Part shown: in pieces, positions 3,999-60,489 of the stretch
Position numbering within the stretch: the stretch's first letter is position 1
Layout of the letters: each line of letters starts with the position of its first letter
Source: Schmidtea nova
Taxonomy: Eukaryota
NCBI GenBank assembly: GCA_044892505.1
Contig: CM097882.1
Coordinates: 26,102,001 to 26,166,000, forward strand
DNA length: 64,000 bases
Reading direction: 5' to 3'
The notes under the pieces: model-generated
Told to the model about the DNA's origin: nothing
Databases searched by the model: none
The model's input: the letters and a program-made list of their open reading frames with translations, nothing else
Made by a program: the position numbers and the translations under genes

Positions 3999-4000
3999 CA

Positions 4001-4554: not shown

Positions 4555-4646
<92 letters not shown>

Positions 4647-29101: not shown

Positions 29102-31097
29102 TAATATAATTTCACAGAATAGAATAAATTTGTATAGATTTTTTGACAATGTATATCACGAAGGAACTTTCTAAGATATTTTGCACGAAATAATTTGAAT
29201 GCCTTTGATCCATAAACATTTGTGAAACTTTTAATTAGAAAATGTATATAAAGCTTCAATAGCCTATATAAAAAGTGAACAACTTAGAATATTGAAGTAG
29301 ATTTGATATGTTTTCATTTTTATTTTTAAAGAGGAACATACTCCAAATCGGCCCTTGCATACCAATTATGGTTAATCATGTCTGATCTGACCTTTATTTA
29401 TTTGACGTTGAAAATTCGTGCAGAAAAGGAAAAACATACTGTGAATATGTAATTGTGTTCGCGGTTCATCTTTTTATATAATTATTATATTTATCAGCTT
29501 TAAATTTATTCATGTAAAAATTGCTTTTATCAATCATAGAAGCTCAGGATTGTTTTATTAAAATGCACTCATTTTATTAATTAGACTTTTCCTTTCCAAA
29601 CAATTCCAATTCAATAAACACAACTGAACTCTCCTCTACAGAAAAAGTAAATTTTATTTTCCACTCTTTTCTAGCTATTTTTAGGAAAGATTTAAGTCAA
29701 TCTCTATTATTATTCCAAGTTTTATGATAATTGGAATGGCATCAATTATTGTCCTAACAGTTTGTTGTGTGCTACATCAGACGTTTGTTATTGTTATTTT
29801 TCGATATTTTTTTAATATTAACAAAATTTAGGAAAAATGACACATCAGAAAAAATCTTTTTCAGTGTTAAAATTCAAAATCTCAACCAAGACAATAAATT
29901 TAATGTCCGGTTCGTTCTTTCGAAACCCGTTAAGGAATTGGCATAATAAACGATTTTATTTTTATTCTTAAATATTTTTATGAAATTTATTTTTATTTGG
30001 AATTCTAATAAAGTGTTAATTTGATTTTTTTATAGTTATATTTTAAGACTAATATTTAAGGCTACCATTTTTATGCACCACCCATTGTTCTATATTTACA
30101 TAGCATAAATTTTACTTCCTAAAAAAGAAAATTTTAAGCAAAGAAATAATTTTTGTTAAAATAGTAGTATTTTTTAAGAATTTTATTTCTCTTTTCGGTG
30201 GTGTTCTGCTAGCTGCGCAAAGATGTATGACATAGGATTTTGGCTCTCGAAAATTTGCCCGTTTGTGTATGGGTTGATTTATTTCTTAGTCATCCCAATT
30301 TGAATTATTTTTTTATACACATTCTAGAAAATTCATGTCTTAATCTATGTCTCTCTGATGTTCCTTGTTGTTACTGTACATTGTGGTTTAAAGTGAGCTC
30401 TGCATCAGAAATACTCTGCTTCCGGGTTCCTATCTGCCAATAGAAGGCCTTTTGCGTATGAGGATGAAATATAAGTAGCTTTTAATTCAGAGACGCAGTC
30501 TTAATTCTTTCCGTTCTCGCTCGTACCATGACTCTTGCATCTTCGAACATTTGCAATCTGTAATTGTGTTAGTCAGAATAATTATATTATTAAAAGTAAA
30601 GTAAAAGGATGATATTCTTTGATAATATTACGAAGTATAATTTCCGCATCGCCCTATTGACATACTATTATTCGACAATCATATAACACAAACAATTTAC
30701 TAAAATTCACAATGATAAGCAATTAAACACCAAAATATTTATTAAAATATGTTGGGCCCGCCAAATCACCTAAAAACACAATAAAACGAACAAAAGCATG
30801 AAACAATAAAGAAATAATAAAAATAAAAATAGCAAGAAAAACAAATTAAAAATAACAATAAAACGACAAATAATAATTGATAAATTTTCAGTAAAAGGAA
30901 ATTTTGAAAATAAACCGGTAAACAACCGCAAAAGGGGGCCTGAAATAAGAAAAAATAGAATTAAATAAAATAATAGTACAAATAATTAATTAATTACTTG
31001 GAAAATCAGGACCACCCAGCGAGAAACCGGAAAAGGAAACAAAATAATGTTTAGATTAGAATAAAATAATAAAAATACTTTGATGGACGGCCTGATC

Positions 31098-31135
31098 CTG
31101 ATTGGTCAATCCAACCAGACGGATCAGTATAAATA
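31098..31135 (+). promoter_or_regulatory. Putative LTR promoter (inverted CCAAT + TATA)
   Basis: CTGATTGG at ~31098 and TATAAATA at 31128-31135 (copy at 57600-57637); would imply a short U3 and ~2.7-kb R/U5. Confidence 0.55.
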
Positions 31136-32139
31136 CCGATCCAAAAATCATAACTCAACAGTTAAGACGTTTTACATTTCACTTACAATCAAGACTAAAC
31201 TTTGATTTAAGTAACATTTCATTTAACGAAGCGAGAATTTTTTGAAAAAACAGAATTCAAGTACGGAACGTAATTTTGATTGTTATTTTTTGTGTACCCA
31301 TGATTTTTGTTTGATTAAAATTTTATATGTAAACGTTATTTTATTTTTTCATTGATTATTGACACTTTAATGCATATAGCTATACTTCCTATGCTGCTCA
31401 CGCGGCGAGGGAGTCCGAGTCGTCGTCGTGGGGCCTCAGGGTCTCACATGGCGGTTCAACCTTTTTATTATTTAATTTAGATGTGAAGTTTTATCTAGAA
31501 AATTTGATTGAATTTTTAGTCTAATACAGACCATTTGCAAATTATTTAATTTTGGGTTGCACAACGGACGAAGGTCGAGGGCCAAATATGTAGATTGCGG
31601 AGGGCGGATGGATAAGGAGGGACACACCATGGTAGGGCATGCTCAGTCTTTAAATTTTTGGTAAATTGAATCGAAAGGGAACCTCCCGCATGGAAAACAG
31701 TGAGCAACAACTAAAATAAATTTGAATAATTTCGTTGGAATGAGAAAATCCAACGTAGTCCAAAGTCCGATTTCATTCGGAATCAGCATTTCGCCTACAA
31801 AATTTTAATATCGATAAATTCCGATCGCGATGGAATGCGTCGGAAAATCCAAATTAAATTAGTTACTAAAAATAGGCCGATCGTCGTATATGACGCGGTT
31901 TCCCAAGTTATTCTCCGATCGCTGTATATAGCGCGGAAATCTTGATTAAATTTGATAATTCCTGAATGCTGCATATAGCACAGGACTAATTATGAACTCT
32001 TTATTCCGACCGTGGTAGATCACGGCGGAGAGAAATAAAATTAATCTTATTTTTTAACGGTTGTGATTATATGCAACATAATTAAATTATCAACGAATTC
32101 CCCCTTAACTCATATTTATATCCAATAAATGTAATATAG

Positions 32140-32619
32140 ATGTCGACAGCTGAACTTACAAATCAATTAACGCAACTACGGAATATGGAGCAAGGGAATC
32201 TGCGGAATGAAAATATCTCGCAGCTCAAGGATCTACCAGCATCGATATTGCGAACCCTCAACTGCCAAATGTATAAGTGGCGACAGGGGTTTGGCCGAAA
32301 ATGCCCGTTCTCGATATGGACAGGAGGGCACGACCAAATACTCTATCGAGGAGGACCGAACTGGCCGATTTCTCAAAGGCCGTACTCAAACAAATTTGGC
32401 CGACTTGTCGTACTGATCAAGGACACCGATGGACAGACAAGCCGTGTAATTTATTGGGGGCATATCCCTCGTCGGGAACTATGCCAACTAGGCCTACACG
32501 AATTCCTGCCACGAAAACCGTTCGGCAAGGAGTGCCAGAAAGGACAACCCTCATTCTCTTGGGCTCGTCTCCGTCAGAAACCGATTAACAGCGAATTACA
32601 TAGCCTGTTTCGGAGATAA
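32140..32619 (+). CDS. LTR-encoded ORF-L1, 159 aa, unknown function
   Basis: ATG directly after TAG; GC-rich island in AT-rich LTR; identical in both LTRs; no family recognised. Confidence 0.5.
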   Translation: MSTAELTNQLTQLRNMEQGNLRNENISQLKDLPASILRTLNCQMYKWRQGFGRKCPFSIWTGGHDQILYRGGPNWPISQRPYSNKFGRLVVLIKDTDGQTSRVIYWGHIPRRELCQLGLHEFLPRKPFGKECQKGQPSFSWARLRQKPINSELHSLFRR

Positions 32620-32803
32620 GAACTGATTGTCAAATCTTTCAAATTGTGATTAAATATTAATATTCAGCAGTGTTTTTGTTATGTTGTTTTGAGTTTTGGT
32701 ATTGTGTTTTTAATAATTCATATTCGTAACCAAATAACCCTATGATCAGTTTCATTTTTCACATCATTTAATCATAGAGTAAATATCCTAAATAAATTAT
32801 AGA

Positions 32804-33400
32804 ATGAACCCAGATTTGATGCAGAAAGAATTGGAAAAGATGTGGCGGATTCGGAGAGCCCAGGATAAGGAATTGGGTCTCCTCAAGGCACAATTGATCA
32901 AAGCAGAGGCACAGATTGCATATTTGCGCAAAAGCTGGTTTGCTCCGGCCCGAATGAAGGAGCAAATCAGTAAAACCGAGCGCGCCCAACAGACTGCAGC
33001 CGATTACCAAATGGAATGGGAGGCTACAAAGATAGAACTCCGAAAATGCCTCCATTCCGTAACTGCCTCATACATCGAGAAGGAACTCAGAGAGCAAATC
33101 CGTCCGATTACGTACCAAGCTTGGACGGCAGAAAAGAAGACAGTAAACTCCATTGGAACGGATGTCCCCGATTTAATTGAAAGTCGGAATGAGACAGCTC
33201 CTCCAGCCAATTCAACCACTTCATCGGCGACTGCGCACCAGAAACGCAAGCGCATTGGGCAGAAACGGCGGAGACAGAGAAAATTATTTGCCCAGCAATT
33301 ACAAATCCAAGTCGATGGTCTACATCAGATGACTGAGGAAGCATTATTGACGGAGATTTTTCCTCCGGCGGGAGTTTTTACCGAACTCATTAAAAATTAA
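32804..33400 (+). CDS. LTR-encoded ORF-L2, 198 aa, coiled coil + basic NLS-like tract
   Basis: Heptad-rich N-half, KRKRIGQKRRRQRK; TAGA-ATG start context; AATAAA at the stop; identical in both LTRs. Confidence 0.65.
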   Translation: MNPDLMQKELEKMWRIRRAQDKELGLLKAQLIKAEAQIAYLRKSWFAPARMKEQISKTERAQQTAADYQMEWEATKIELRKCLHSVTASYIEKELREQIRPITYQAWTAEKKTVNSIGTDVPDLIESRNETAPPANSTTSSATAHQKRKRIGQKRRRQRKLFAQQLQIQVDGLHQMTEEALLTEIFPPAGVFTELIKN

Positions 33401-33874
33401 ATAAATTGTTGCATTGGCTTAAGAATCTCATCGTTCATTTAAATTGATTTAATTAACTTTACCAATGATTAAATAAAGATAGAACAAAAGTATAAATTCA
33501 GTTTACAAAATATCGAATAGAGATAATTAAATAATTAAGCGAGCATTCGTTGAAATACTTCTCGCAGACTGAGTAATGATAAAAATAAATTTTCTGAAAG
33601 ATTAACACGGAATACCTAAGGGGATGATTAAAGCGTAAGTCCTTCTAACGGCAGCAATGGACCCGTAAACATAAATGGGGAGTAGTACTAGCGATAGTGC
33701 TCACCTGCCCATCATTGTTTAACCACCCTGCGCATCACCAACTTGATTATATAGGGAAATAATCAAGGGCGCTTGAGTGTAAAATTGCAATTTTATGCAT
33801 GATCATGGATGAGGGATCCCTAGTCATTGTTAGAGCATTTTTCATCTAACCCCTCCATGAACCCAGCATAAATT

Positions 33875-33892
33875 TGGGGGCTCAGCCGGGAT
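33875..33892 (+). other. Primer-binding site, tRNA-Pro-like
   Basis: TGGGGGCTCAGCCGGGAT versus canonical tRNA-Pro PBS TGGGGGCTCGTCCGGGAT (2 mismatches), 6 nt after the 5' LTR. Confidence 0.8.
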
Positions 33893-33966
33893 CAACTTCG
33901 TTTTATCGGAAAAATGTAAACGTAAAATCTGCAGAGAGGTTTAAAATGCTCGTGTCAATTAATTTA

Positions 33967-33968
<2 letters not shown>

Positions 33969-33999
<31 letters not shown>
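33969..33999 (+). repeat. 31-nt poly(A) tract in the leader
   Basis: Direct count. Confidence 0.95.
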
Positions 34000-34000
<1 letters not shown>

Positions 34001-34227
34001 AGAAAGGTTATAATTAAATTTAAATTATTGTATAAAAATTAAAATAACAACACGGCAGTGAACAAAAGTGAATTTAAAAATTAAAATGCATGCATAGATA
34101 ATTTGTCGGGACGACAATTTTCGGAAACACGGGGAGGATTGATAAATATCAAAGATACAAAACGAAACATATTACTACTTTAAAAATGATAAAAATAACA
34201 GAGTTAAAACAATTATTTATTCAGTAA

Positions 34228-34689
34228 ATGGAGGAAAAACTGAAAGAAATTGAAGAATTTCTCAACACAGAAAGCGAAACATTAGAAACGATTGGCAAGA
34301 AAATAAACCGATTTAGAGAAATTGAATTTCAGGAACCCACAACACAGACTGAGGAAACAGATGAATTAATAAAGATAACAGAGAGAACAAGAAAAATCGA
34401 CATAAAGACCCGCTACAAATGGTACAGAACACGATTAGAAAATGCAGAACTAAACATTAAGTGCAGGCAAATAGAACAACGATTAACCCCAACATACAAT
34501 CAATGGAGGGCGCAGGGGGTAGAAGCAGCGAAAAAATACCGACAGTGCTATATATGTGAGGATAGGGAGATACAAATTATGTTTTTACCCTGCGGACATT
34601 TTCGTTTTTGTAAAATATGTGCCAGCAAATGCGACCTATGTCCTATGTGCAACCTGATGATTGACGATAAAATTATTGTGTATTTATAA
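34228..34689 (+). CDS. 153-aa protein with C-terminal IAP/MDM2-type C3HC4 RING (putative E3 ligase), no BIR
   Basis: CYICEDREIQIMFLPCGHFRFCKICASKCDLCPMC..IDDKIIVYL at the extreme C-terminus, as in IAP RINGs; coiled-coil-like N-terminus. Confidence 0.9.
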   Translation: MEEKLKEIEEFLNTESETLETIGKKINRFREIEFQEPTTQTEETDELIKITERTRKIDIKTRYKWYRTRLENAELNIKCRQIEQRLTPTYNQWRAQGVEAAKKYRQCYICEDREIQIMFLPCGHFRFCKICASKCDLCPMCNLMIDDKIIVYL

Positions 34690-35167: not shown

Positions 35168-35401
35168 TTATGAGATTTGTCCCTTGAAACAAAGGGTTAG
35201 GAGATTTGTCCCTTGAAACAAAGGGTTATGAGATTTGTCCCTTGAAACAAAGGGTTATGAGATTTGTCCCTTGAAACAAAGGGTTATGAGATTTGTCCCT
35301 TGAAACAAAGGGTTAGGAGATTTGTCCCTTGAAACAAAGGGTTATGAGATTTGTCCCTTGAAACAAAGGGTTATTAGCGGTTTGTCCCTTGAAAAAAAGG
35401 G
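35168..35401. repeat. 29-bp tandem array x8
   Basis: TTA(T/G)GAGATTTGTCCCTTGAAACAAAGGG; last copy diverged. Confidence 0.97.
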
Positions 35402-35445
35402 TTGAGGCCAATGAGCCATATTGAATGACCTAGCTAGGCGTTATT

Positions 35446-35700
35446 GAGAGATTAAATTGAGGCCAAGAGAGCCATTTGAGAGATTAAATTGAGGCCAAGA
35501 GAGCCATTTGAGAGATTAAATTGAGGCCAAGAGAGCCATTTGAGAGATTAAATTGAGGCCAAGAGAGCCATTTGAGAGATTAAATTGAGGCCAAGAGAGC
35601 CATTTGAGAGATTAAATTGAGGCCAAGAGAGCCATTTGAGAAATTAAATTGAGGCCAATAGAGCCATGTGAGATATAAAATTGAGGCCAGAAGAGCCATA
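35446..35700. repeat. 32-bp tandem array x8
   Basis: GAGAGATTAAATTGAGGCCAAGAGAGCCATTT; last two copies diverged; partial unit at 35402-35420. Confidence 0.97.
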
Positions 35701-36310
35701 GTGAACTATAGATATATCCGGATAAATAGTAATAGAGGGAATATAGACCCATAGTGTAATCGTCGACGAGATTTAGAGTAGTGCGCACTAGTAGTTAAGA
35801 GAATGCGAGTAAAGCTGATTATGCAACCTTAAGTAAAGCATGCAAGGAGAATAATAAAAATTGGAGCTGACCGGAGAACCGGCAGAATGAGTAAAACGAT
35901 TGCTAGCAGGGAATAATGAGTAGAGATGATATAATAATGATAAACGAGTCAGAAAGACTCAGGGAATTAGAGCGCTCGAGCGACCAATAAATTGGGAGAC
36001 TGTGGGAAAAGTAATTGATTGGATAAAGTATAGATAATTATTACGACATAAATAGATAATTGTGACCAGTCTATAGATAATTTAAATAGACTAAAAATAA
36101 AGGGGAATCTGGGAATTGGGAAATAATGAAAACCCAGTAATAAGTAATCCCGAAAGAAAGGGAATAAAAGCGCGACGATAACAATAATGTATCGTTGAGG
36201 ACCTTTGTATTTTAGATATACAAATCAATCAAATCAATCAATCAAGCAAGAAGAATCAGAAAAACGATAAGAGATAGAACAGGAAAATTGAGTATACAAA
36301 AGTAATCCCC

Positions 36311-39300
36311 TTGAGAAAAGGAGCAAAGAGTGTCGTAGTAAAGCCAACGGAAAAGAAAGTCGATAGCAACAGTAATAAAAAAGACAAAACTAGTACTACA
36401 ACAAAATCAACAAAAAAGCAGAAAGCCGGCAAAGATAACCCACAAGGGAGTAAATCGAGGAAAATAATAAGAGATAAATCGATTACCGAGAACGATAAAT
36501 TGTCAATAATAAGCAACAGCTCAAGTAACAAAGAAAACCAAGCCGAACCCAAGGAGAACCAAGCAAGTGAAACAGAGAGCGACGAAACTAACAACGATAA
36601 TATCGAAGAAGTAGAAAACGAGGTAGAACCAGAGATAGAAATCAACGCGAGTGATAACGAAAGTATAATATCAGATAACGAAGGAATAAGAGAAACAGAA
36701 AGCGATTCAAGCTCGAGTAAAACGGAAGACGAACATAACAACGAACTAGAAACAAGAGGAAACGAAAGTAAAATAACTCAAGACAGCGGAATTGAAATGG
36801 GTGAACCAAGAGAAGAAATAAAGGATAAATTTTCAGGAGAACCGTTCAACGGAGATGCGAGTAAATTAGAAACCTTTTTAAAAGAATTTGGCATATTCGT
36901 GGAAGTATGCAAATGGAAAGCTGAAACAACGGTAAGCAGAATACAGTTATACTTGAAAGATAGTGCATTGGACCTATATTTGGAAGCAAAAAATGGTACC
37001 AATCCACCTACAAGCTGGACAGCGATAAAGGATTTTTTCCAACAAACATTTGGAATAAATAAAGTGCTGAGCGAGGCATTCATAGAATTCTCAATGAGGA
37101 AACAAAAGATGAATGAATCTAATGCGGTATACGCGAGCGAACTGAAAAAATTAGCAAAATCGGTATTCAAGGATGGAGGTCCAATAAACGAGGAGTTAAT
37201 GGCAGCCATCTTCATAGGAGGATTAAGAAGACCCGACATAAGAGCACAAGTGGGATGTCAAGGATGCAAAACCATAGATCAAGCGTTAGAAACAGCTAAC
37301 CGATTTGAATTGCATATGATAGGAAGCGAAGGCAGAATTTATTTAGCCATGGACACAGCGCAAACAGAACCAGAAGTAAATCTCAACAATCATATTCCAA
37401 ATTCGCAACAATTAAACCGACCACCCCCTCAACGAAGGAATGAAGGAAATAAAGTGCAAAACTTTGGAAACCAAAACAACTACAACCCTCAAGGACAAAC
37501 AAAACAATGTAAAACATGCGGGAAGTTGGGACACTGGCAGCAAGAATGCTATCAAAATTTGAATTGCGGAAAATGTGGAGTCAAAGGACACTCGGAAAGC
37601 AGATGTTCTACAATAATCTGTTTTAATTGCGGACGACCTGGTCACTATTCAAGAAATTGCGGACAAAAAAGTAATCAGCGAGGAAACTGGCAGAGTAATG
37701 GGAACCGACCAAATTACGGAAATCAAGCAAATACCGTAAACCGACCAGATTATGGAAACCAACAAAACAACAATAACAATAATCAGAACAAAACCACCCC
37801 CAAAGAAATACATTTAATGCAAGAAGTCCAAAGATTGACGGAACTTATAAACAATACGACGAGAGGAAATCCGCAAACCAATCAACAGCAAATTAGCATG
37901 ATGAGAAAAATAGAAAGCGAAAACGAACGATTGAATCGAGAAAGTCAAGCACGACACGCTCAGGAATGGGCAAGAATACAAAGAGAGGATGAACAAAAAC
38001 AGCAAGAAAGAGAACGACAACCTCTAAGAATTAACATGCTAAGAGCAACAAACCAAACAGACACTCGCGAGAAAGAAACCACACTGGAAATGAATTCGAT
38101 AAACCCGAATCCAGCCGACAACGAAAGTCGAAAAGAAATAGTACAAAAAGATGAAGAAGTAGAAAAAGAAGCAGAAAAGGGAGAGGAAACCGAGATAAAC
38201 CAGGAAGAGAGAAGGAAAATTTGGAAAAAAGGAATGATGGTAATCATGCCCAACGACCATATGTTTCGATTCCAATATAACGCAAAAGAAAAGGTGGAAA
38301 TACTATTCAACAAAGTAAACCAGATGATTCCAGGAGTAACAAAGCTGCCCAGAGAAGCGTTCTTACAAATAGAGGGTGCACCATCAGTAAAATTGAAATT
38401 AACGGATATATGGGAAAACATGGGAGTAGTAGAAACAAAAAGAAATGTGATGAGAATTAAAGAAATAGAACCAGAAGAAATTCCACCACCAATACGTCAC
38501 GAAACCCGAATCCGGCGAATATTTGAAGGAAAAATGATAAGAAGACGTTTAAAAGAGATAGACGAGTTGGGAAAGAAAATGGAAAAAGTCAAAATAATAG
38601 AGGACAAGAGCGAACCAACACCAGAGATTGACAAAAACGAACCAGAACCAACGGAGAATATACAAGGAGAAACGAACCAAACAGCACATATTAATATGTT
38701 AAGAAATACCACCAGAGAGTTTTCCGATGAAGAAGAAGATAGTGATATCAGTAGCCTAGCAGGAGACATATTAAAGGAATCCGAAGACGAAAATAAAGAG
38801 ATGAAAGTAATAAAGACCTCAGAACCTACACAGATAAAAGTAGATGAAATCCAGAAATTACTAGATAACTCGCTAGAAGTAATATATAACGAAGAGTTCA
38901 TGGACAAGAAACAATATCGGAAATTCATGAAAGCATTACTACAAATGAACTACAAAGAATGGTTACAAGACCGGGAAGTAGACATGTTGAATCGATACGT
39001 AGGGAAATTAATAGAGGAACCACTCCTCAATTACACCATCTCAATAATAATAAATACGTCTACACCAAGAATCTGGATCAAAACTCCATTTACAGACGAT
39101 ATCTACAGATGGGTAGAGGATAGGCTAGGGAGCTCATATAGAAACAAATTCATCTATTCGCAGAATAGACTCGTAAAGAAAAGAACTCACTTAGTAGAAA
39201 CAGGTATATGGCCAGGAGAAATAACCCTGTTATCAATATGTGATGAAAAAGAAGAAGAGAACCTACAAGAAGTTGCAAGGGAAGCAAACGCGTGCTTCGA

Positions 39301-42300
39301 AAGGAGAATAAAACCTCGGTTAGAATACGAAAAAGAACGAGTCTTACGAAAGAATCTAAATTTCCTGATAGAACAAATCATACCACAAGTCAAAAAACAT
39401 AGAAAAGAATTAATGAGAAGCGAATACGAGAAATTGAAACGATGTATTGAGTGCATACGTGACACAAGCCACACGAGATGGTCACAGATCTCACACGACA
39501 AATTAATCGCAAAAATGGGAAAAACAATGTTCAGACAAGGGAAAATAACAGATCTAAAAATTTCAGTAGAATTACCTAATGAGGACACCAAAGAAATTGA
39601 AGTGGTAGCGGATTGCACCATTAAAGAATTAATAAATGTCATCAACGAGACACTAGTGCAAAGAGAACCAGAAGACGAATGGGAAGACGACATAATCATA
39701 CAATACAACGAACATGTATTATGGGATCACGATGAGAGACGATTATATAAAATCGGTATATGGGATAATCACCAAACAATCCACGTTAGCAGAATGGACG
39801 ATACACCCAGAGAAACTGCTAAAGATGAGAAAAGAGAACGGGAACGACGGAAAGAAGTTGTGCGCAAATTACAACAAATAGTAGATATCTATCGAAATTG
39901 GCGAATTTGGCCAGAATGGGAAAATGTATTAGAAGAACTCAATCTCAACAGACGAATACGAACACCCGTAGAAAAACAATGGAACGAGAAAGGAAAATGT
40001 TGGGAACCAAAAGAAGGGGAATACGAAGAAGAATATAAAAGAGGAATTGAAGATGACTGCGAACCAGAGATAGGAAGGGTTTGCATGGTGACAAGGAAAG
40101 CTACGCCAATAGACCTAGATGGACCAGAAACAGCGGCCATGTGGTTAGAAAGGGAAAAGCAAAAAACGGAAGAATTCGTCGAAATATTAAAAACTAATGC
40201 GCACGGTAAGAGAAAATTAATAAAGGGTCTCGCAGATTTTTTCGCGGTAAATGGGGAAGATATAACATGCTTGCGTAAAGTAGCAAAAGCAATCACGGAA
40301 TATAAAAGAGTTAACGAGTGGTGCCCGGAACAACTAGACCATGTAATTAGGAAATGGAGAAACCAAGAATTCTCGCAGGAAATTCCACAGAAAGTACATT
40401 TAAGAATAATATACCCAAACAAGGATAAGGAAGAGTTGTGGGTAGGAATAGCAGAAAAAATTCGAGATATTAAAAAGAAATTGAGATACGAACCACCATT
40501 CCATTTACAACACCAAGGACGATCATTAGATAACAGTTTGGAAATCGGAATAACGCCAGCACAATTAGACCTCATGAATACCTTGACAGTAGAAGCAATA
40601 GCGGGTCAACCATTGAAACGTAAAGAAGAAAACCATAAACTACACGGAAGTATAAGTACGCCAAGCCCGATGAAATCAGTACTAACACCAGGGACAAGTT
40701 CAAGACGATCTGAGACAACACCCAGAGGAACCAGAGAAAGAACTCCACCACAACCATACGACGTGGACGAAATTTTAACGGATAGCGACGATATGATAGA
40801 GGAATTAACCGAATTAACAAAGGAAAAAGAAGATAACATTTTCGAAAGAATACAAGAACTACCTACGACAATACAAGTAACCAACACCGGAGAAGCAGAA
40901 GTTGAAGAAGAAATAATAATAGAAGAAGTAAACGATTTGACAGAAGACGAAACGAGAGGAGCGAATGTCGAAAATGTACAATTAACGCAAGAAATGGAAA
41001 GATGGTTAGAGGAAAGAGCTAACGAACCAAGAGATGTCACGGAAGAAACCGGACGGGCAACAAGATTTGTGGAAACAGGGACAGGAATGGATAGACGACA
41101 TAGAGGTAGACCCAAGACAGACCCAGCGAATATAGTTGTAAGAAATAAAGACGAAAAGAGACAAGATCAATGGGAATTATGTTTAAGGAAATTAAATAAA
41201 ATTGCGGAGATGAAAGAAAAAGAGACAACACCAATATGTCAGGGGGAGGAATGGATATCGAAAATAATAATGGAAATATTGGCAATAATTGATCCGGAAT
41301 TAAGAAAATACTGGCGTATAACTGAGATAAGCGAAAAGGCGAAGTCACTACACAGCGCAATCGCACCCATCTTACCGGAATTCATAAAAGAAAAGACGAA
41401 GTCAAATCATTTAGACTGGCAAGGAACCACTACGTTAATAAAGAAATTGACAGAAGGAGCGGAAACAGATAATAAATACGTAATAGCCATCGCATACACG
41501 ATCTACAATCTGTTGACACTGAGTAGAGGTCGACCAAAACCCACTGCATTAGAGAGACATATAAAAAATACCGCAAAGATTATAGCTAGAGAAATAGAAC
41601 CTTACGTCATTAACATAGGAGGATGGGAAACATTTATAAAAGCTAACCAGAAGAAAACGCAAGCGAAGAATATGAAAAAGAAATTTGAAAAAATATTGGA
41701 AGAGTTAGAAAAAGAACAAGCAGGAACAGGAAACGCGAAGTCATCAATGAATCTGAGTGCTATCATAATGATGATGTTGATATGGATGATTAGCACCGAT
41801 AGCGCAACAGCATTCGAAGTGTTTGATTGCGACCAAATGAAGTTAGGAGAAAAGTATTCATTGAGAGGTACGGAGCAATGCAAAGATGCGACTCCAGTAG
41901 AGTTGCAGAAGATTAAAAAAGAACAATGGTACCACGTGTATCAAGAAGCAGAACTCATAAAGACAATGGTGAATGAATGTAAAGTGCAGAAGACGAGATT
42001 CGCATTCTACTGCGGGAGAGGACATTATTCAGCAATTGTCATGCCAGGAACGGAAAGAGAACCAATCGTGTTACAAGGAGAAGACTGCGAAGCACTGTTT
42101 AAACATGGAGAAGTAACAACAAGAGATAAAATCAAGATAAGAGGAAAGCCAGGAATGATGATGCAACAAACCTACTATGTAGCAGGACGGATTACGGGAG
42201 GAGAAGGATATTGTCAAGGAGAAACCTACCCGATATTCGGAGTACCCGCAACCAACCTAGTAGTAATGGATACGTATATAGTCGAATTAAAAAGCTATGA

Positions 42301-48300: not shown

Positions 48301-51300
48301 TTTGAAATTTACTTGTGATCAGAAGACATTACTAACCTTATTAGACAGAGGAAACATAAACATCACAAAGAATGAAGAAGAATACAAATTCGATAAAGAG
48401 AAGGAAGCCTTATTCAATAAGATTAGGAAATGGTGTGCGAAACCACTTGATAAACTAATAACATACAAAGACATAAACAATTTTAACGAGAAATACCAGA
48501 CAATAGTAAGTGAGTATGAGGAAATAATAAAAATCTTAAACCATCCCGAAAAATGCAAACAGGTTTTAGAGAAAAAAGAAAGAGAAAGTAACAAGAAACT
48601 CACACCACTCTTCAAAGCAGAAGCACCATACCAAGCTAGACTAGATGCGATACAAGAAAAAGCAAAAGAATTGTTACCGGAATTCGAGAATAGTAAACAT
48701 GCACTGGAAATACTCGGCGCATTAGTTGAAAAAGTACACGCATACGCAAAAGGAACATACAATGGTAACGACATAGTAATAATAAAAAAGGAGATGCCAG
48801 TAACATTCCTATTACCAAAAGACGGAATAATGCCCATACATAGAGCTCTACGAAATGGCAAAGATAGGAAAGTAATGGAAATTGCAAGAGTAATGCTAAA
48901 TTGCGGAAGCAATATGAATATGATAGACGAGAAAGGAGATACACTTATGGTATTTGCAGCAAGGGCCAAAACGAAAACAAAGGTATTAGAAGAACTATAC
49001 AAAGCAGGTGCAGGACTTACAGGAAAGACAGATAAAGATAATTCGATATTGGATGTAGCATTATTAACACACAATTGGGAAATGGTCAATTTCATTAAAA
49101 CCGTCCCAAATCAGGAAGAAATAGATCACCTAACTGATACGGTCAAGAAACCCAGTGTACTAGCAATGATGAACAACGTCGAACTAACAGAATCAATACT
49201 TACGTGGATAAATCCTAATACTAACGAACCAGCATTCAGGATTAATAAATTTACAGAACATAACCAAAACTGGTGTATAAGAAGTGCCTTAATAACGTAT
49301 AAATGGCCAGAGATATTGAAGATGTTTATGGAAAGAAAGGATCTAAGAATCACAACCAGCCCGAAAGAAGAAAAATACACAGGCAAATGGAAAGAATTGA
49401 TGAAGACATACATCAACAATTGGATCAAGGCCAAAAAGGAAATCTTGGAACATAAATCCACTAACAAAGTAATACCGGAGCAGGTAGAAACACAAGAATT
49501 TGAGGCAAGTAATCTAACGACATTAGCATATGCGAAACTAATAGAAGAAATAAATGTCGAGGACGACATTTTCGACGAACCAGGGGGAGATGACAACACA
49601 GATAGTGACGACGGTAACAACTCAGATAACTCAAGCGATCACGAACCACCCGATAAAGAGGAAAACGAGAGAAAAGACAAGAAACGAGACAAAGAAGAAA
49701 AGAAAAGTGAAGACGAAAAACAAAGAGATGAAGATGGAGAACAAGGAAAAAACGACCAAAGAGATAAAAATGACACCCAAAGAACAGGTTATAAATCAAC
49801 CATAAAACCATTCTTCAAACCAGAATTACTATTATTAACAGTGATTTTAACGTTAATTAACCCAAGTCAAGGAATGACATGTGAAGAAAGGGCAATAATA
49901 CAAATAAAAAACGCAAAAGGAATCGAACGAGTATGTTGGTCGAAAAAGGACAAAATCACGGAACAAAATAGGCCGATGGATTGCAGAATCTCAAAACACG
50001 AGCAAGAAATCATAGAGATCAATGACTTAGATCTAGATACCTGGTACAAAATATGCACCGTTAGAAAACAAAAGCATCCAAGATCACACAACACAATCGC
50101 ATGTGCAAAATACCAAACACCTAAAGCAGCCATGACAATACAACAGTCACCCAAAGGAGATTACATCCTCGGAAAATGTGGAAGAACAGAGACACAGGGA
50201 ACAGAAAACAAAAAACCCCCGGCAATAGATAAGCAAACAACACCAACTATACGAATTACAATAAAGAGGCCCGAAGCAAGAGTGGCCACAAACGAAACCG
50301 AAAGAGTGTCTTACCAAATGGAAGTATTATGCTTAGCACTCATACTAATAATAATAAAACGATTAGAGGAAGGAATAGAAATTGAAACTATGACAATAAC
50401 AGAAGTGGAAGATACACAGAACACTAACATAAAATGTTGGGCGAGGAATGACGAAGAAATCGGTGTAAATGAAATAAGGAAAAGTCGAAAACCCACAACA
50501 AACAAAGTAATTAAAGTATCCGAAGTAAGAGCAGACAAGACGTACAAACTATGCCTACTTGAGAAAGAGAGGAACAAGAAAGGTACCACAAAATGTAAAA
50601 CATTCCAACCTGGAGAGGTAATAAAGTTCCGAAGGAGAACGAGGAAGAGAAATAAACAAATCAAGCAGAAACTGAACATAACATTAGAAATAAAAGAAAT
50701 AGAACCAAATGTGAAAGGAGTATGCTGGAGGAAGTACGAAAAGGAAACAAATAAAAGAACGACACCACAATGTCAAACAAGCACAGGAGCAACAACGATA
50801 CAAATAAAAGGTCTAGAAAGTAAACAAACCTACGAAATATGTTTGGTAAAGAAAAATGATCAGATAACGATAAACGACCTAGAATGCGGAATACATACAA
50901 CTTCATCCGGAACAAGAACCAAAACGTTAACACGGAAAAATAAAAGGAAACAACGAAACAAAGAAAAACCGAAGTACACCACTACCTTTAAAAATAATAA
51001 ACAACCAATAAGCCAGGAAGCCACGACAAAACCCGAGAAAAAGACATCAGCAACTCTGACATTATGGAAAATAGAGAATAAAACATTAGAAATATGTTGG
51101 ATAATAGTTCAGAAACCTATAAGAAGACAATCAAGAGAGTGCAGAAAAACAAATAAAGAAATCAAGATCGAAAAACTACAATTTAATAGCGAGTATGAAG
51201 TATGTGCAATAGAAAGAATGGACGCACTAGGAAACCAACAAGAAAGATGCGAAACCTACTATACACCAGCGAACGCAACATCAAAAGGAATAACAAGGAA

Positions 51301-53275: not shown

Positions 53276-53401
53276 GGGCGGATTATGACTGTAAATAATA
53301 GTGTAAATAACAAAGCATTACCGTAATAGTATGGGTATCGATATTATAAAAAATTGTAAAAAGCTAGAAAAACAAAGTAAATGATGTATATAATTTAGAA
53401 A

Positions 53402-53758
53402 ATGACCGAACAGGACGAAACAACTGAAATAACTATGGCTATGAGATGGAAAGCACAATGTGATTTATTAGTACGAACAGTCAACTCATTACAGAACCAA
53501 TTAGCGGAAAGACAAATGTTATTATCAGAAAGTTATAACAATTGTTTCGAACAATTACACAGAATAGAGGAACAACAAAGAGCGATAACTGAACTCACCA
53601 GAGAAAATCAAACGATAAGCAACACCAATCAAAGACAAGCAATAGAAATAAACCATTTAACACGAGGAGAAAGAGAAGGATCCGAAGAAGGATGGATGAG
53701 TTGGGTAATAAATAGATTAAACAACGAAGCGGAACCAGATTCAACGAATGAGCCATAG
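53402..53758 (+). CDS. 118-aa coiled-coil orphan
   Basis: ATG in TAGAAAATG context, heptad pattern, element-like codon bias. Confidence 0.75.
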   Translation: MTEQDETTEITMAMRWKAQCDLLVRTVNSLQNQLAERQMLLSESYNNCFEQLHRIEEQQRAITELTRENQTISNTNQRQAIEINHLTRGEREGSEEGWMSWVINRLNNEAEPDSTNEP

Positions 53759-53852
53759 ATAAATAAAGCGGAAAACTGTAAATATGTAAAAATAAAAACA
53801 AGAAAAATCCAAAAAATAAATGACAAGTCGAATGTATATATTATTGTAGAAA

Positions 53853-55229
53853 ATGGACAGAGAAGAACGAATAATCGAAATTTTGAGACTAGAAAACAGA
53901 AAATGGAGTAAGAGGCTCACATGCGGGAAGTGTAACAATTTATTACGAGAACCCAGACAAACGATATGTGGATGTAGAATATGTACAAAATGTATACAAG
54001 AATTGGATGCAACAGGAATAACAACATGCCCAGAATGTAAAGAAGGAGGAATAGTGTTGGACGAAACCAGAACGGACAAAGCAACCCAAAGAGAAATTAT
54101 GAGCACCACAACGGAGTGCGTAAATACACCTTGTACATGGCAAGGACAAATAAGTAATCTGGAAAACCATATGGAAAAATGCGAGGAAAAGAGAGCCGAA
54201 TGCGAGAAATGCCAACAGACAATAACTCTAAAGAAGAGAGAACAACACAAGGAAGAATGTAAAGAAGAAGAAATCGCATGCGAGTATTGTGAAGCCCGAG
54301 AAACAAGGAGAAAAATCGAAGAAGAACACTTGAATATAACAGAGGAGAAAGTATGCGGACAATATGTAAGTAAATGTCCAAACAATTGTGAAATAACAGA
54401 AGAAATAAAATTACATGAACATTGGAAACTATGTACCGAAAGGCCAAGAGAATGCCCATATAACAAGCATGGATGCAAGGAAAAGCGGACGCGAAAAACA
54501 ATGCAACAACATCTAGAAGAAGCAGCACTAACGCATGTGGAAATGACAAACGAAACGACTAAAGAAACGGAACGGACAATTCAGAAATTAGAAAAAGAAG
54601 TAGAATCACATAAAATAATGATGAGTTTACTACTAGAAACAAGAGAGCAGTTTGAACTAACTCGCGAAAGAATGGAAAAGAAAATAATAGCCATAGAAGA
54701 ATTAGGAAAAGGAATGAAAATACAATATAATCAATTAATACGAGAAATTGACGAAAGAAGGGACTTACCAATCGCACCTTACCTATGGAAAGTAACAGAT
54801 TTCAGAGACAAATTAGCAGAAGCCAGAAATATGACGAAAACAGCAGTAATAAGCCCACCATTTTATTTATGGAAAAACGGGGTTAAAATAAGATTGAAAG
54901 TATACCCAAATGGAGACGGAAGAGGACAAGGAACACACGTGTCAATATTCTTCTCACTATGTAAAGGAGAATACGATGACCTAATAAAATGGCCCTTGAA
55001 AATAGGAGTCATTATAAGAATCAAAAGTACGGGAAAACCAGTAGAAAAGTTCTTTGAAACAGACAAACATTCGAGTACGAGCGAAAAGCCAACGACAGAA
55101 TGCGGACTAGCAGCAGGAGAACCAATGTTTATAAGGAAAGAAAACCTATGGGAGCAACTATATACAGACACGCTATACATAGAGATGGAGAGGCATGAGA
55201 AAGCAGACAGAAAAGGATGGTTGGCGTAA
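53853..55229 (+). CDS. Intronless full-length TRAF homologue (RING, TRAF Zn fingers, coiled coil, MATH)
   Basis: CGKC..CGCRICTKC..CPEC RING; C..C..H..C fingers; YLWKVTDF..SPPFY..YPNGDGRGQGTHVSIFF..GEYDDLIKWP MATH. Confidence 0.96.
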   Translation: MDREERIIEILRLENRKWSKRLTCGKCNNLLREPRQTICGCRICTKCIQELDATGITTCPECKEGGIVLDETRTDKATQREIMSTTTECVNTPCTWQGQISNLENHMEKCEEKRAECEKCQQTITLKKREQHKEECKEEEIACEYCEARETRRKIEEEHLNITEEKVCGQYVSKCPNNCEITEEIKLHEHWKLCTERPRECPYNKHGCKEKRTRKTMQQHLEEAALTHVEMTNETTKETERTIQKLEKEVESHKIMMSLLLETREQFELTRERMEKKIIAIEELGKGMKIQYNQLIREIDERRDLPIAPYLWKVTDFRDKLAEARNMTKTAVISPPFYLWKNGVKIRLKVYPNGDGRGQGTHVSIFFSLCKGEYDDLIKWPLKIGVIIRIKSTGKPVEKFFETDKHSSTSEKPTTECGLAAGEPMFIRKENLWEQLYTDTLYIEMERHEKADRKGWLA

Positions 55230-55342
55230 TGAAGGAAGTAACCATGTAAATAAAATGTATAGAAACAATATGAATTAACAAATAATCAAAAACAATAAAA
55301 AATAAAAAATGATTAAATATTCTTTTATCTGTAATTATAGAA

Positions 55343-56404
55343 ATGGGAAATATAGAAGTAACCTTACAAGAAGTAACAGTACATCAAGACGAAATGATCA
55401 GAAATCACATGGAGCGGATTGGGATATGGATTCATGCCTATTATCGAAAACAGGAAGAATTGGAAAGACAAACCCAAGCACTAAGAGAAGCCGAGAAAAC
55501 GAATCAAAGAAGTCGAGAAAAAATAGAAGAAGTCTACAAACTACTAAGACAACAAAACGAATACTACAAAGAGATGATGAAAGAGCGACGAGAGGATAGG
55601 GATAGACAACAAATAAAAACAGACCATAAGATTCAGTCAATCACAGAACAAGCAAGATATTGGAAGAAAGAGGCAAAAGACTCTTACAAGGAAGCAAGGG
55701 AGATAATAGAACGAACAGCGTACAGCGATGATTGGAAACTGTTTAAAGAGATCGATGAATTAAAAGAGGAATTAGGGCAAAAGATCAGTCAAGAAGCGTC
55801 AAATAAAGTATGGAGTAAGAAAAGACAACAATTCATCAGAGAACAAGCCAAGAAAATAAAAGAATTAACTTATCAAGTACAAAGAATGGGAGAAGATTTA
55901 GCCAATCAAGAACAATTAAAAGGTATGCTGACCGGAATGTGGAATCACAAGGAAGAAAACATGAAAAGAGACATAAATGGATATCAAGGAGTGATCACCC
56001 AGAAGAAAATAGAATTAAAAAGAACTAAAGAAAGACTGGAAGAAACGAGGCAGAGTTATGAAGAGAACATAACAAATTTGGCAAAAGAAAACGAAGAACT
56101 GAGAAAGAAGTTGGCAGAAAAACCAACACCAATAAAAGAAACAAGTATCACAGCAGCAGTGACCGAAATGATGGAGAAGGAAGAGAGAGAGAAAAAATTG
56201 GCAGAACTAGAAAAACAAATTGAAACCCTAACAGAACAGGCGAACTATCTGGAATACTTATTAGATGAAGAGATCCAGATATCCCACACATACCGAGAAG
56301 AAGTCGAAATGTGGAGGAGCACGGTAATATGGATGCCACTCCCCATAAATCAGGTGGAACCTCAAGACGAAGGTTTTTACGAACCCAACGAAACCCTTGT
56401 ATAA
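55343..56404 (+). CDS. 353-aa coiled-coil orphan
   Basis: Long E/K/Q/R heptad-rich ORF; TAGAAATG start; no recognised domain. Confidence 0.85.
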   Translation: MGNIEVTLQEVTVHQDEMIRNHMERIGIWIHAYYRKQEELERQTQALREAEKTNQRSREKIEEVYKLLRQQNEYYKEMMKERREDRDRQQIKTDHKIQSITEQARYWKKEAKDSYKEAREIIERTAYSDDWKLFKEIDELKEELGQKISQEASNKVWSKKRQQFIREQAKKIKELTYQVQRMGEDLANQEQLKGMLTGMWNHKEENMKRDINGYQGVITQKKIELKRTKERLEETRQSYEENITNLAKENEELRKKLAEKPTPIKETSITAAVTEMMEKEEREKKLAELEKQIETLTEQANYLEYLLDEEIQISHTYREEVEMWRSTVIWMPLPINQVEPQDEGFYEPNETLV

Positions 56405-56479
56405 ACGTGCGAAAACCAAGTGTAAATAAATTATGTAAAATAAAAAGTGTCAAGCTGTATTGACCGATGTATAAAAGAG

Positions 56480-57049
56480 ATGAGAAAGCTCGCAATAGCA
56501 ACACTCCTATGGTTAACAACCATTACCCTACAGAGAGAAGATCTACAACTAACCGAAACCCAATTACGAGTTCTACCCGACAAAATCTACCAGAAAGTAG
56601 ACAGCCTAATCGAAGAAGTAATTAAAGAAATCAACGAATTCCGACAGAAATATCCCTACAATCAAGATCATCAAATCCAACAAATCTTCGATAACCAACA
56701 ACTGAAACTAGAAGAAACCCGAAAAATCCTAAAAGAAGGTAGAGAACCCATAAAAAGCCTATCCCAAGCTGAAATAGAATATCAAGAGAAATGGATCATA
56801 GCAATCATCATAATCCTAGCAGTCAGCACAACTATCATCGCAATCACAATCCTGCTTGCCTCGTATAGAATAAAAATCCTAAAACAAAAGCAGAAAATCT
56901 ACAACCAAACCTCCAGACGAGATAACCGAGCTCAAAGACGAATAAGGAGCCATCTCAACCACATTCAAACCCACTACGAGCTACAAATGATCAACGAGAG
57001 GACCCGAACTCAACCCCAAGCGAGCCAGACGATCGAACAAATTGTATAA
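56480..57049 (+). CDS. 189-aa predicted type I membrane orphan
   Basis: ATG at 56480 in frame with the listed GTG ORF; signal-like MRKLAIATLLWLTTIT; TM WIIAIIIILAVSTTIIAITILLA followed by a basic tail. Confidence 0.78.
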   Translation: MRKLAIATLLWLTTITLQREDLQLTETQLRVLPDKIYQKVDSLIEEVIKEINEFRQKYPYNQDHQIQQIFDNQQLKLEETRKILKEGREPIKSLSQAEIEYQEKWIIAIIIILAVSTTIIAITILLASYRIKILKQKQKIYNQTSRRDNRAQRRIRSHLNHIQTHYELQMINERTRTQPQASQTIEQIV

Positions 57050-57220
57050 ACATTATGATAAACTTACCGAACTATTGTGACAAATCATTACATTTTGACT
57101 ATTTAATGACAAACTTTATGATATGTATAAATTCGATCACCTTATGTGATTTTCTTTGCATGTATAACTTTATAAAACTTTTTATGGATGATGAATATAA
57201 GTATTTATGTATAATTAATT

Positions 57221-57251
57221 GCGGGACGCAATTTTAGGGGTCCCCGGGTGA
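57221..57251 (+). other. Plus-strand primer region (atypical PPT)
   Basis: GCGGGACGCAATTTTAGGGGTCCCCGGGTGA directly before the 3' LTR; Gypsy-like position but not a pure purine run. Confidence 0.55.
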
Positions 57252-58641
57252 TGTTGGGCCCGCCAAATCACCTAAAAACACAATAAAACGAACAAAAGCA
57301 TGAAACAATAAAGAAATAATAAAAATAAAAATAGCAAGAAAAACAAATTAAAAATAACAATAAAACGACAAATAATAATTGATAAATTTTCAGTAAAAGG
57401 AAATTTTGAAAATAAACCGGTAAACAACCGCAAAAGGGGGCCTGAAATAAGAAAAAATATAATTAAATAAAATAATAGTACAAATAATTAATTAATTACT
57501 TGGAAAATCAGGACCACCCAGCGAGAAACCGGAAAAGGAAACAAAATAATGTTTAGATTAGAATAAAATAATAAAAATACTTTGATGGACGGCCTGATCC
57601 TGATTGGTCAATCCAACCAGACGGATCAGTATAAATACCGATCCAAAAATCATAACTCAACAGTTAAGACGTTTTACATTTCACTTACAATCAAGACTAA
57701 ACTTTGATTTAAGTAACATTTCATTTAACGAAGCGAGAATTTTTTGAAAAAACAGAATTCAAGTACGGAACGTAATTTTGATTGTTATTTTTTGTGTACC
57801 CATGATTTTTGTTTGATTAAAATTTTATATGTAAACGTTATTTTATTTTTTCATTGATTATTGACACTTTAATGCATATAGCTATACTTCCTATGCTGCT
57901 CACGCGGCGAGGGAGTCCGAGTCGTCGTCGTGGGGCCTCAGGGTCTCACATGGCGGTTCAACCTTTTTATTATTTAATTTAGATGTGAAGTTTTATCTAG
58001 AAAATTTGATTGAATTTTTAGTCTAATACAGACCATTTGCAAATTATTTAATTTTGGGTTGCACAACGGACGAAGGTCGAGGGCCAAATATGTAGATTGC
58101 GGAGGGCGGATGGATAAGGAGGGACACACCATGGTAGGGCATGCTCAGTCTTTAAATTTTTGGTAAATTGAATCGAAAGGGAACCTCCCGCATGGAAAAC
58201 AGTGAGCAACAACTAAAATAAATTTGAATAATTTCGTTGGAATGAGAAAATCCAACGTAGTCCAAAGTCCGATTTCATTCGGAATCAGCATTTCGCCTAC
58301 AAAATTTTAATATCGATAAATTCCGATCGCGATGGAATGCGTCGGAAAATCCAAATTAAATTAGTTACTAAAAATAGGCCGATCGTCGTATATGACGCGG
58401 TTTCCCAAGTTATTCTCCGATCGCTGTATATAGCGCGGAAATCTTGATTAAATTTGATAATTCCTGAATGCTGCATATAGCACAGGACTAATTATGAACT
58501 CTTTATTCCGACCGTGGTAGATCACGGCGGAGAGAAATAAAATTAATCTTATTTTTTAACGGTTGTGATTATATGCAACATAATTAAATTATCAACGAAT
58601 TCCCCCTTAACTCATATTTATATCCAATAAATGTAATATAG

Positions 58642-59121
58642 ATGTCGACAGCTGAACTTACAAATCAATTAACGCAACTACGGAATATGGAGCAAGGGAA
58701 TCTGCGGAATGAAAATATCTCGCAGCTCAAGGATCTACCAGCATCGATATTGCGAACCCTCAACTGCCAAATGTATAAGTGGCGACAGGGGTTTGGCCGA
58801 AAATGCCCGTTCTCGATATGGACAGGAGGGCACGACCAAATACTCTATCGAGGAGGACCGAACTGGCCGATTTCTCAAAGGCCGTACTCAAACAAATTTG
58901 GCCGACTTGTCGTACTGATCAAGGACACCGATGGACAGACAAGCCGTGTAATTTATTGGGGGCATATCCCTCGTCGGGAACTATGCCAACTAGGCCTACA
59001 CGAATTCCTGCCACGAAAACCGTTCGGCAAGGAGTGCCAGAAAGGACAACCCTCATTCTCTTGGGCTCGTCTCCGTCAGAAACCGATTAACAGCGAATTA
59101 CATAGCCTGTTTCGGAGATAA
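58642..59121 (+). CDS. ORF-L1 copy in 3' LTR
   Basis: Translation identical to 32140-32619. Confidence 0.5.
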   Translation: MSTAELTNQLTQLRNMEQGNLRNENISQLKDLPASILRTLNCQMYKWRQGFGRKCPFSIWTGGHDQILYRGGPNWPISQRPYSNKFGRLVVLIKDTDGQTSRVIYWGHIPRRELCQLGLHEFLPRKPFGKECQKGQPSFSWARLRQKPINSELHSLFRR

Positions 59122-59305
59122 GAACTGATTGTCAAATCTTTCAAATTGTGATTAAATATTAATATTCAGCAGTGTTTTTGTTATGTTGTTTTGAGTTTTG
59201 GTATTGTGTTTTTAATAATTCATATTCGTAACCAAATAACCCTATGATCAGTTTCATTTTTCACATCATTTAATCATAGAGTAAATATCCTAAATAAATT
59301 ATAGA

Positions 59306-59902
59306 ATGAACCCAGATTTGATGCAGAAAGAATTGGAAAAGATGTGGCGGATTCGGAGAGCCCAGGATAAGGAATTGGGTCTCCTCAAGGCACAATTGAT
59401 CAAAGCAGAGGCACAGATTGCATATTTGCGCAAAAGCTGGTTTGCTCCGGCCCGAATGAAGGAGCAAATCAGTAAAACCGAGCGCGCCCAACAGACTGCA
59501 GCCGATTACCAAATGGAATGGGAGGCTACAAAGATAGAACTCCGAAAATGCCTCCATTCCGTAACTGCCTCATACATCGAGAAGGAACTCAGAGAGCAAA
59601 TCCGTCCGATTACGTACCAAGCTTGGACGGCAGAAAAGAAGACAGTAAACTCCATTGGAACGGATGTCCCCGATTTAATTGAAAGTCGGAATGAGACAGC
59701 TCCTCCAGCCAATTCAACCACTTCATCGGCGACTGCGCACCAGAAACGCAAGCGCATTGGGCAGAAACGGCGGAGACAGAGAAAATTATTTGCCCAGCAA
59801 TTACAAATCCAAGTCGATGGTCTACATCAGATGACTGAGGAAGCATTATTGACGGAGATTTTTCCTCCGGCGGGAGTTTTTACCGAACTCATTAAAAATT
59901 AA
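59306..59902 (+). CDS. ORF-L2 copy in 3' LTR
   Basis: Translation identical to 32804-33400. Confidence 0.65.
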   Translation: MNPDLMQKELEKMWRIRRAQDKELGLLKAQLIKAEAQIAYLRKSWFAPARMKEQISKTERAQQTAADYQMEWEATKIELRKCLHSVTASYIEKELREQIRPITYQAWTAEKKTVNSIGTDVPDLIESRNETAPPANSTTSSATAHQKRKRIGQKRRRQRKLFAQQLQIQVDGLHQMTEEALLTEIFPPAGVFTELIKN

Positions 59903-60489
59903 ATAAATTGTTGCATTGGCTTAAGAATCTCATCGTTCATTTAAATTGATTTAATTAACTTTACCAATGATTAAATAAAGATAGAACAAAAGTATAAATT
60001 CAGTTTACAAAATATCGAATAGAGATAATTAAATAATTAAGCGAGCATTCGTTGAAATACTTCTCGCAGACTGAGTAATGATAAAAATAAATTTTCTGAA
60101 AGATTAACACGGAATACCTAAGGGGATGATTAAAGCGTAAGTCCTTCTAACGGCAGCAATGGACCCGTAAACATAAATGGGGAGTAGTACTAGCGATAGT
60201 GCTCACCTGCCCATCATTGTTTAACCACCCTGCGCATCACCAACTTGATTATATAGGGAAATAATCAAGGGCGCTTGAGTGTAAAATTGCAATTTTATGC
60301 ATGATCATGGATGAGGGATCCCTAGTCATTGTTAGAGCATTTTTCATCTAACCCCTCCATGAACCCAGCAAATACAACAAATAATTGAGTCAGTGGCAAA
60401 CAGTTTTTTTAATTTCTCCGGTTCTCTTTCATAATTCTTACCTCGTCTATCCATGTATGTTCTTAGAAACAGTCTTATATCTATAATAT

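Follow-up and report, generated by a model that had tools for sequence, protein, structure and literature searches.

A Burro-type Gypsy retroelement of Schmidtea nova with an in-frame Env and selected modules that likely blunt death and immune signaling

A 29.6-kb element and its giant open reading frame

The window analyzed here, a stretch of 64,000 nucleotides from Schmidtea nova (contig CM097882.1), contains a whole Gypsy-type long terminal repeat (LTR) retroelement of 29,621 bp at positions 30750 to 60370 of the forward strand, on which all its features lie. It belongs to the published Burro kind of elements. Its limits were set by the paired LTRs and by a target-site duplication, AATA, seen on comparing the flanks (30746 to 30749, second copy at 60371 to 60374), and 4-bp duplications flank five other copies as well. 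The 5' LTR (30750 to 33868, with a TATA-like box near 31130) and the 3' LTR (57252 to 60370) show a single mismatch in 3,119 bp. An 18-nt primer-binding site (33875 to 33892), complementary to the 3' end plus CCA of tRNA-Pro(TGG), the host's own, begins six bases past the 5' LTR. The TG...CA LTR pair, the short duplication, the tRNA primer site and a Pol with the order protease, reverse transcriptase (RT), RNase H and integrase make this a Gypsy (Metaviridae) element. With its LTR pair, duplication and primer site, and an unbroken first open reading frame (ORF1), it is intact, as the preliminary description of this DNA had proposed, and recently inserted; the sole run of N in the window (7768 to 7966) lies outside it.

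Each LTR carries two ORFs of no Pfam family, one of 159 amino acids (aa) (32140 to 32619, second copy at 58642 to 59121) and one of 198 aa from its ATG (32804 to 33400, second copy ending at 59902). The leader holds a GGA-loop inverted repeat (34100 to 34119), found in 18 of the 20 other copies compared (see below), and two tandem arrays, 29 bp repeated 8.1 times and 32 bp repeated 8.0 times (35168 to 35699). The leader repeat is a variant of a 17-nt GGA-loop inverted repeat placed directly 5' of the 3' LTR (57217 to 57233), which has a different stem, is common to several Burro families and, as a hairpin, occurs at 2,987 sites genome-wide. These repeats are likely a packaging or priming signal. 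The priming tRNA-Pro(TGG) is also borne by a tandem 308-bp array (L095, G000:C1 near 459.6 Mb), and pattern matches number 1,106 genome-wide.

ORF1 runs unbroken for 5,665 codons from stop to stop (36278 to 53275), and its first Met is codon 174 (36797), leaving 5,492 aa. It opens with a Gag (36797 to 37687) made of a capsid-like region and three CCHC knuckles. Further on, an Env (41753 to 43594) comprises a signal segment, a Monjiviricetes-type fusion glycoprotein (PF24664, E value of 5.7e-71) and a transmembrane anchor at aa 2410 to 2428, and is followed by Pol (44156 to 46981), two ankyrin-repeat blocks (47588 to 49567) and two cassettes (49823 to 53086), each with a signal-like segment, four or three cysteine-bearing FN3-like repeats and a transmembrane segment. 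The seven repeats occupy the C-terminal 1,150 aa. Several weak tests agree in calling them FN3-like: a Pfam E value of about 0.1 and an Atlas score of 0.90 with low recognition. A sister element reaches an E value of 2e-4, whereas the repeat profile matched the PDB weakly (contactin-4, E value of 0.65). Each cassette contains additional hydrophobic segments that make its topology uncertain. Membrane segments were located in Env, both FN3 cassettes and ORF201. A search for database relatives of ORF1 residues 900 to 1700 found none, and the dUTPase-like domain noted in print had no Pfam match. Ahead of the Gag Met, 173 codons remain open (36278 to 36796), with a ratio of nonsynonymous to synonymous polymorphism (pN/pS) of 0.34, and a sister element has about 100 open codons at this place; a non-AUG or spliced N-terminal extension is possible.

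Between Gag and Env there are three candidate ubiquitin-like domains, at 38225 to 38467 (doubtful), 39539 to 39802 and 40385 to 40612. Singly they are weak (Pfam E values of 0.05 to 0.11 for one, no match for two), and a profile of two sister families alone missed them; we call them ubiquitin-like because a mixed profile that includes the sister families matches ubiquitin folds at an E value of 2e-6, and this is the whole support. The ubiquitin-like domains of the preliminary description are thus retained as candidates through the mixed profile, the first of them being doubtful.

A putative Bcl-2-fold domain (41183 to 41662) directly precedes the Env signal segment. It was missed by Pfam and phmmer, and neither phmmer against the PDB nor an Atlas search with this region gave a match. 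With a profile built from seven host-type Bcl-2 ORFs of the same genome and no element sequences, aa 1683 to 1789 were the best domain of ORF1 (E value of 5e-4, 6.3 bits). The highest score among 200 shuffles, 150 of which gave a scored domain, was 4.0 bits; hhalign gave a probability of 9.5% and an E value of 0.003. In sister families, the domain at the same place, directly before Env, reaches 31 to 35 bits on the Pfam Bcl-2 model. A single-sequence fold was unusable (pLDDT of 42), and a model for which only retroelement sequences were used reached a pLDDT of 55. With the latter, all the matches listed by Foldseek were Bcl-2-family chains (best E value of 6e-3), as were the top seven rows of a VIA comparison (Z of 8.2, root mean square deviation of 3.3, 113 residues aligned). 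A Bcl-2 helical fold is therefore probably present in ORF1, as judged from a low-confidence model. The BH2-like GGW is kept and NWGR, the BH1 motif of anti-apoptotic Bcl-2 proteins, is absent, so that the Bcl-2-like domain announced in the preliminary description stands as a predicted fold and not in its BH1. When the domain was modeled together with a BH3-like segment taken from a host ORF of the Bcl-2 family, the complex scored 0.12. Bcl-2 matches number 141 in the genome, most of them within long frames like the 3,073-codon ORF of a shorter high-copy relative (L076-L077) that carries Gag, ubiquitin-like, Bcl-2 (about 31 bits on Pfam), Env and Pol parts, as well as one FN3-like repeat and a membrane segment.

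Separate genes and selection on the cargo

Outside ORF1, the element carries a small ORF upstream of Gag and a cassette of ORFs near its 3' end. The former (153 aa, 34228 to 34689) ends in a RING closest to those of XIAP and cIAP (E value of 2e-11). A BIR was absent from all the element ORFs scanned with Pfam, while the same model matches another family of this genome, discussed below, at 60 bits. The 3' cassette contains a coiled-coil-like ORF of 118 aa (53402 to 53758), a full-length TRAF of 458 aa with RING, zinc fingers, coiled coil and MATH (53853 to 55229), a second coiled-coil-like ORF of 353 aa (55343 to 56404) and an ORF of 189 aa with a signal-like start and one transmembrane segment (56480 to 57049). 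The TRAF is 24 to 26% identical to animal TRAFs, and its RING has a Cys in place of the usual His; our tree of MATH domains was built without host planarian TRAFs and says nothing on the donor. Domain searches thus agree with the IAP-type RING, ankyrin repeats, complete TRAF and membrane proteins reported beside Gag, Env and Pol in the preliminary description.

A conserved YAG stands 0 to 3 nt ahead of the ATG in six of seven small ORFs, over a background within 6 nt of 37/157 and 51/344 (15 to 24%). The 3' cassette has four gaps of 75 to 126 nt, and all four show a TGTAAA motif past the stop, over a background of 0.05 per 65 nt. These sites suggest separate mRNAs produced by cis-splicing or leader trans-splicing; in flatworms, leader splicing resolves operons, according to the available part of PMC8629364. 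Four runs of unknown kind, used as contigs, gave coverage of every one of the 30 bins. They showed no clear splice joints and do not bear on expression.

A 22-mer of the TRAF has 255 exact matches in the genome, a lower bound for the copies of the family. Element-borne TRAFs by the hundreds could explain part of the MATH/TRAF expansion of planarians, reported as 121 domains in the portion of PMC6109357 consulted. Twenty other natural copies were compared, six picked by LTR similarity and 14 by MATH similarity; the sample favors well-kept copies because they were picked in this way among the best matches. All 20 have LTR pairs 99.0 to 100% identical, and in five the frame runs uninterrupted for 5,647 codons or more, which answers the call of the preliminary description for a count of intact copies. 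Internal cargo is covered in 18 to 20 of the 20. The two LTR ORFs align in only nine and 11 copies because LTR subfamilies diverge, and frames of similar length stand there.

For pN/pS, we considered variants that recur in at least two of the 21 copies and corrected for the mutational spectrum. Noncoding controls gave 0.86 to 1.77 and shifted frames at least 1.05, and RT had a value of 0.010 and Env of 0.038. The Bcl-2 fold had a value of 0.056, the ubiquitin-like candidates 0.38, 0.064 and 0.020 (5' to 3'), the ankyrin blocks 0.14 each and the FN3 cassettes 0.24 and 0.40. Among the separate genes, values were 0.22 for the RING ORF, 0.13 for the TRAF and 0.071, 0.076 and 0.33 for the 118-, 353- and 189-aa ORFs, and in the LTRs 0.16 (159 aa) and 0.18 (198 aa). 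All cargo regions are under purifying selection (0.02 to 0.40), each of them rejecting neutrality with a binomial P from 2e-3 to 2e-37, and orthologous ORFs are kept at 27 to 70% identity across sister families. With values well under those of the controls, neutral cargo is rejected, an outcome on which the preliminary description had made its proposal depend.

A family lacking RT that carries the BIR-IAP

The Pfam BIR search of the genome led to a different high-copy family, in which a 22-mer of the IAP has 632 exact matches (a lower bound for its copies). We located it at L041-L044 (G000:C1:422052000-422091999), and also at L037-L040 and L105-L116. When the first of these loci was read from LTR to LTR (99.98% identical), its genes were an upstream RING, a ubiquitin-like-protease-ankyrin ORF, a TRAF and a 399-aa BIR-RING IAP, and no Gag, Env, RT or integrase was found in it. 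The frame at the BIR matches has at most 1,180 codons in 148 of 150 cases, and the two with longer frames also lack RT; a further copy (L019-L024) contains a small gag-pol insert that is unrelated to it. Judged from 12 copies or part-copies, the cargo of this family is under selection, with a pN/pS of 0.02 for the TRAF and 0.12 for the IAP, both uncorrected and from small counts.

Twelve of the sites of the 17-nt hairpin were sampled: eight belong to the RT-less family (four of them without TRAF and IAP), two to a sister of the family of the intact element and two to RT-bearing elements. RT-bearing L107 and L112 share with the RT-less family its last 360 bp and the start of its LTR, at 93 to 98% identity. 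It is thus likely that the RT-less BIR-IAP family and the RT-bearing, Burro1-like L117+L107 are a satellite and its helper; an RT-bearing parent carrying the same IAP is possible. The family of the intact element was rejected as the helper, as it shares only short motifs with the satellite, unlike L107 and L112. In print we found no paper on such an RT-less satellite, or only the listing of the Burro review (PMC6431247), and Lee 2026 or Grohme 2018 may describe the satellite or the layout of the intact element.

A wider picture, which we put forward tentatively and rate below even chances, is that Burro is a multipartite system with division of labor, in which a Burro1-like helper with shared ends copies an abundant satellite that lacks RT, Gag and Env and bears TRAF and BIR-IAP. 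The family of the element described here would be a BIR-less, all-in-one alternative with an operon-like cassette and FN3 decoys on the cell surface. If so, retroelement cargo would be the source of TRAF and IAP genes by the hundreds, part of the planarian TRAF expansion, and an element dependent on a helper would persist only for the sake of its host-modulating genes.

Two other loci were seen. Positions 1 to 6125 of the window contain perfect inverted repeat arms of 1,255 bp that enclose a hAT transposase interrupted by a single in-frame stop, plus a 120-bp tandem array, in a structure that probably continues past the window start. L078 and the end of L077 hold a cluster of ORFs (ATPase, integrase, capsid, DNA polymerase) that we presume, from their translations, to be Polinton/Maverick-like.

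Possible role of the cargo and comparison with known systems

The anatomy of the element and its recent spread show that it replicates as a Gypsy element. We think it probable that this Burro-type, Env-bearing element uses its selected TRAF, RING, ankyrin, ubiquitin-like and Bcl-2 modules to blunt death and immune signaling in the cell where it is expressed. Signal and anchor segments alternate along the polyprotein, which suggests processing by signal peptidase together with the protease of the element. In that case the Bcl-2 fold might stay membrane-anchored (tail-anchored) through the leftover Env signal segment, the FN3 cassettes might reach the cell surface and the small ORFs would be expressed as separate mRNAs by either kind of splicing. 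In receptor signaling, TRAF and RING would play the part of ubiquitin-ligase decoys or adaptors. Poxviral Bcl-2-like proteins act as signaling adaptors, and the Bcl-2 fold here, given its degenerate BH1, may be an adaptor of this sort rather than a BH3 trap. The TRAF, RING, ankyrin and ubiquitin-like parts point, as far as sequence goes, to ubiquitin-dependent receptor signaling. The convergence on a single pathway claimed in the preliminary description was not borne out: the cargo is functional, and its parts fit ubiquitin and immune signaling as well as apoptosis. The Env is intact and selected, and the retrovirus-like agent that was proposed is a putative one, known here from its genes.

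Several points weigh against this interpretation. Selection shows function, not which function, and choosing 14 of the 20 copies for their MATH similarity biases the TRAF ratio low. Confidence in the Bcl-2 model is low (pLDDT of 55, E value of 6e-3, Z of 8.2), and its fold is missing the BH1 NWGR. The family has no BIR and hence lacks the only module with a reported test, that of Burro1. Finally, in the section of PMC8532177 available, Burro1 RNA interference left the smedwi-2 phenotype unchanged and derepressed Burro1 was enriched in gut cells, which leaves room for more than one acting cell type. With no BIR and a degenerate BH1, direct blocking of caspases or BH3 is less supported than the preliminary description implied, and protection from death by this family is an inference.

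The same deficits bear on the idea that the element protects the stem cells of its host from apoptosis to the benefit of the latter, with the Bcl-2 fold and the RING replacing the BIR. We regard this as unlikely, although the Bcl-2 fold is under strong selection, an IAP-type RING is present and a mutualism has been reported for Burro1 (excerpt of PMC13465017), since the BIR-IAP of this genome sits on another family. Less probable still is that the cargo serves the replication of the element itself (polyprotein processing, assembly, trafficking, cell attachment by FN3) and not host death signaling. It is true that the Gag-Env-Pol frame has the ubiquitin-like, Bcl-2, ankyrin and FN3 parts fused into it, and that a shorter sister family replicates with no TRAF, RING or ankyrin matches in the 40 kb read, but the family that lacks RT, Gag and Env keeps its TRAF, IAP and coiled-coil ORFs (pN/pS of 0.02 to 0.12), and the TRAF retains all its signaling domains. 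That the cargo is neutral host DNA captured by and hitch-hiking in a young element is highly improbable: the sampled copies are young and were picked among the best matches, but every cargo region rejects neutrality and the ORFs are kept across sister families.

Much of the interpretation is anticipated in print. Burro/GYPSM1 was annotated with RING, MATH/TRAF, BIR, ankyrin, BCL2 and Ubi/SUMO-like domains and with an env in frame between gag and pol, and meddling with apoptosis and ubiquitination was already proposed for it (PMC6431247). The main finding, a giant retroelement whose cargo relates to apoptosis and ubiquitin, is therefore not new; the preliminary description had suspected that the cargo was partly known, and its claim to novelty, which it made depend on the architecture not having been annotated, fails. 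Beyond print, we add purifying selection on every cargo module and cargo shuffled between polyprotein, separate genes and RT-less satellite.

Our element is about 30 kb long with a single ORF1 of about 5,000 aa, has Env in frame between the BCL2-like domain and the protease, and carries ankyrin, MATH/TRAF and ubiquitin-like cargo (the last through the mixed profile alone), all of which are Burro traits. Likeness to published Burro1 was judged by its described layout and not by alignment to the published consensus. Burro1/GYPSM1 of Schmidtea mediterranea has the same Gypsy LTR plan of ~30 kb with a giant ORF1 (PMC6431247), and the two share a Gag with three CCHC, ubiquitin-like and BCL2-like domains, in-frame env, the Pol order, ankyrins, and MATH/TRAF and RING cargo. 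They differ in the length of ORF1 from its Met (5,492 aa here, 4,873 in published Burro1), in the MATH, which is inside ORF1 in Burro1 and here belongs to a whole separate 3' TRAF gene, in the BIR, annotated for Burro1 and absent here, and in the FN3-like membrane cassettes, unnamed in the Burro review. In the same genome, the sister L117+L107 has the published Burro1 layout (5,006 codons, MATH inside ORF1), and our ORF1 is 56% identical to it over 2,563 aa. Kinship with Burro, as first suggested, thus holds, and identity and layout together place the element in a sister family of the Burro type and outside Burro1 proper.

A Burro-like element of Dugesia tigrina also has an ORF1 (5,140 aa) without MATH and the MATH in an accessory ORF (PMC6431247), which is upstream there and downstream here, and its Gag has two CCHC instead of three. 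Viral Bcl-2 proteins (KSHV Bcl-2 7qtx, ORFV125 7ads, vaccinia A52 2vvw) have the fold predicted here at about 10% identity, whereas in our element it is fused inside a retroelement polyprotein; likeness of fold says nothing on function. The closest functional parallel is the BIR-RING of Burro1, for which a protective effect on stem cells has been reported (Lee et al. 2026, Dev Cell, as cited in the accessible part of PMC13465017). As in the B-IAP mutualism described there, an IAP-type RING is found on a Burro element and the cargo is selected; the BIR partner of the RING, absent here, is found on the RT-less family of this genome. A natural BIR-less family thus provides a comparison for the reported IAP mutualism.

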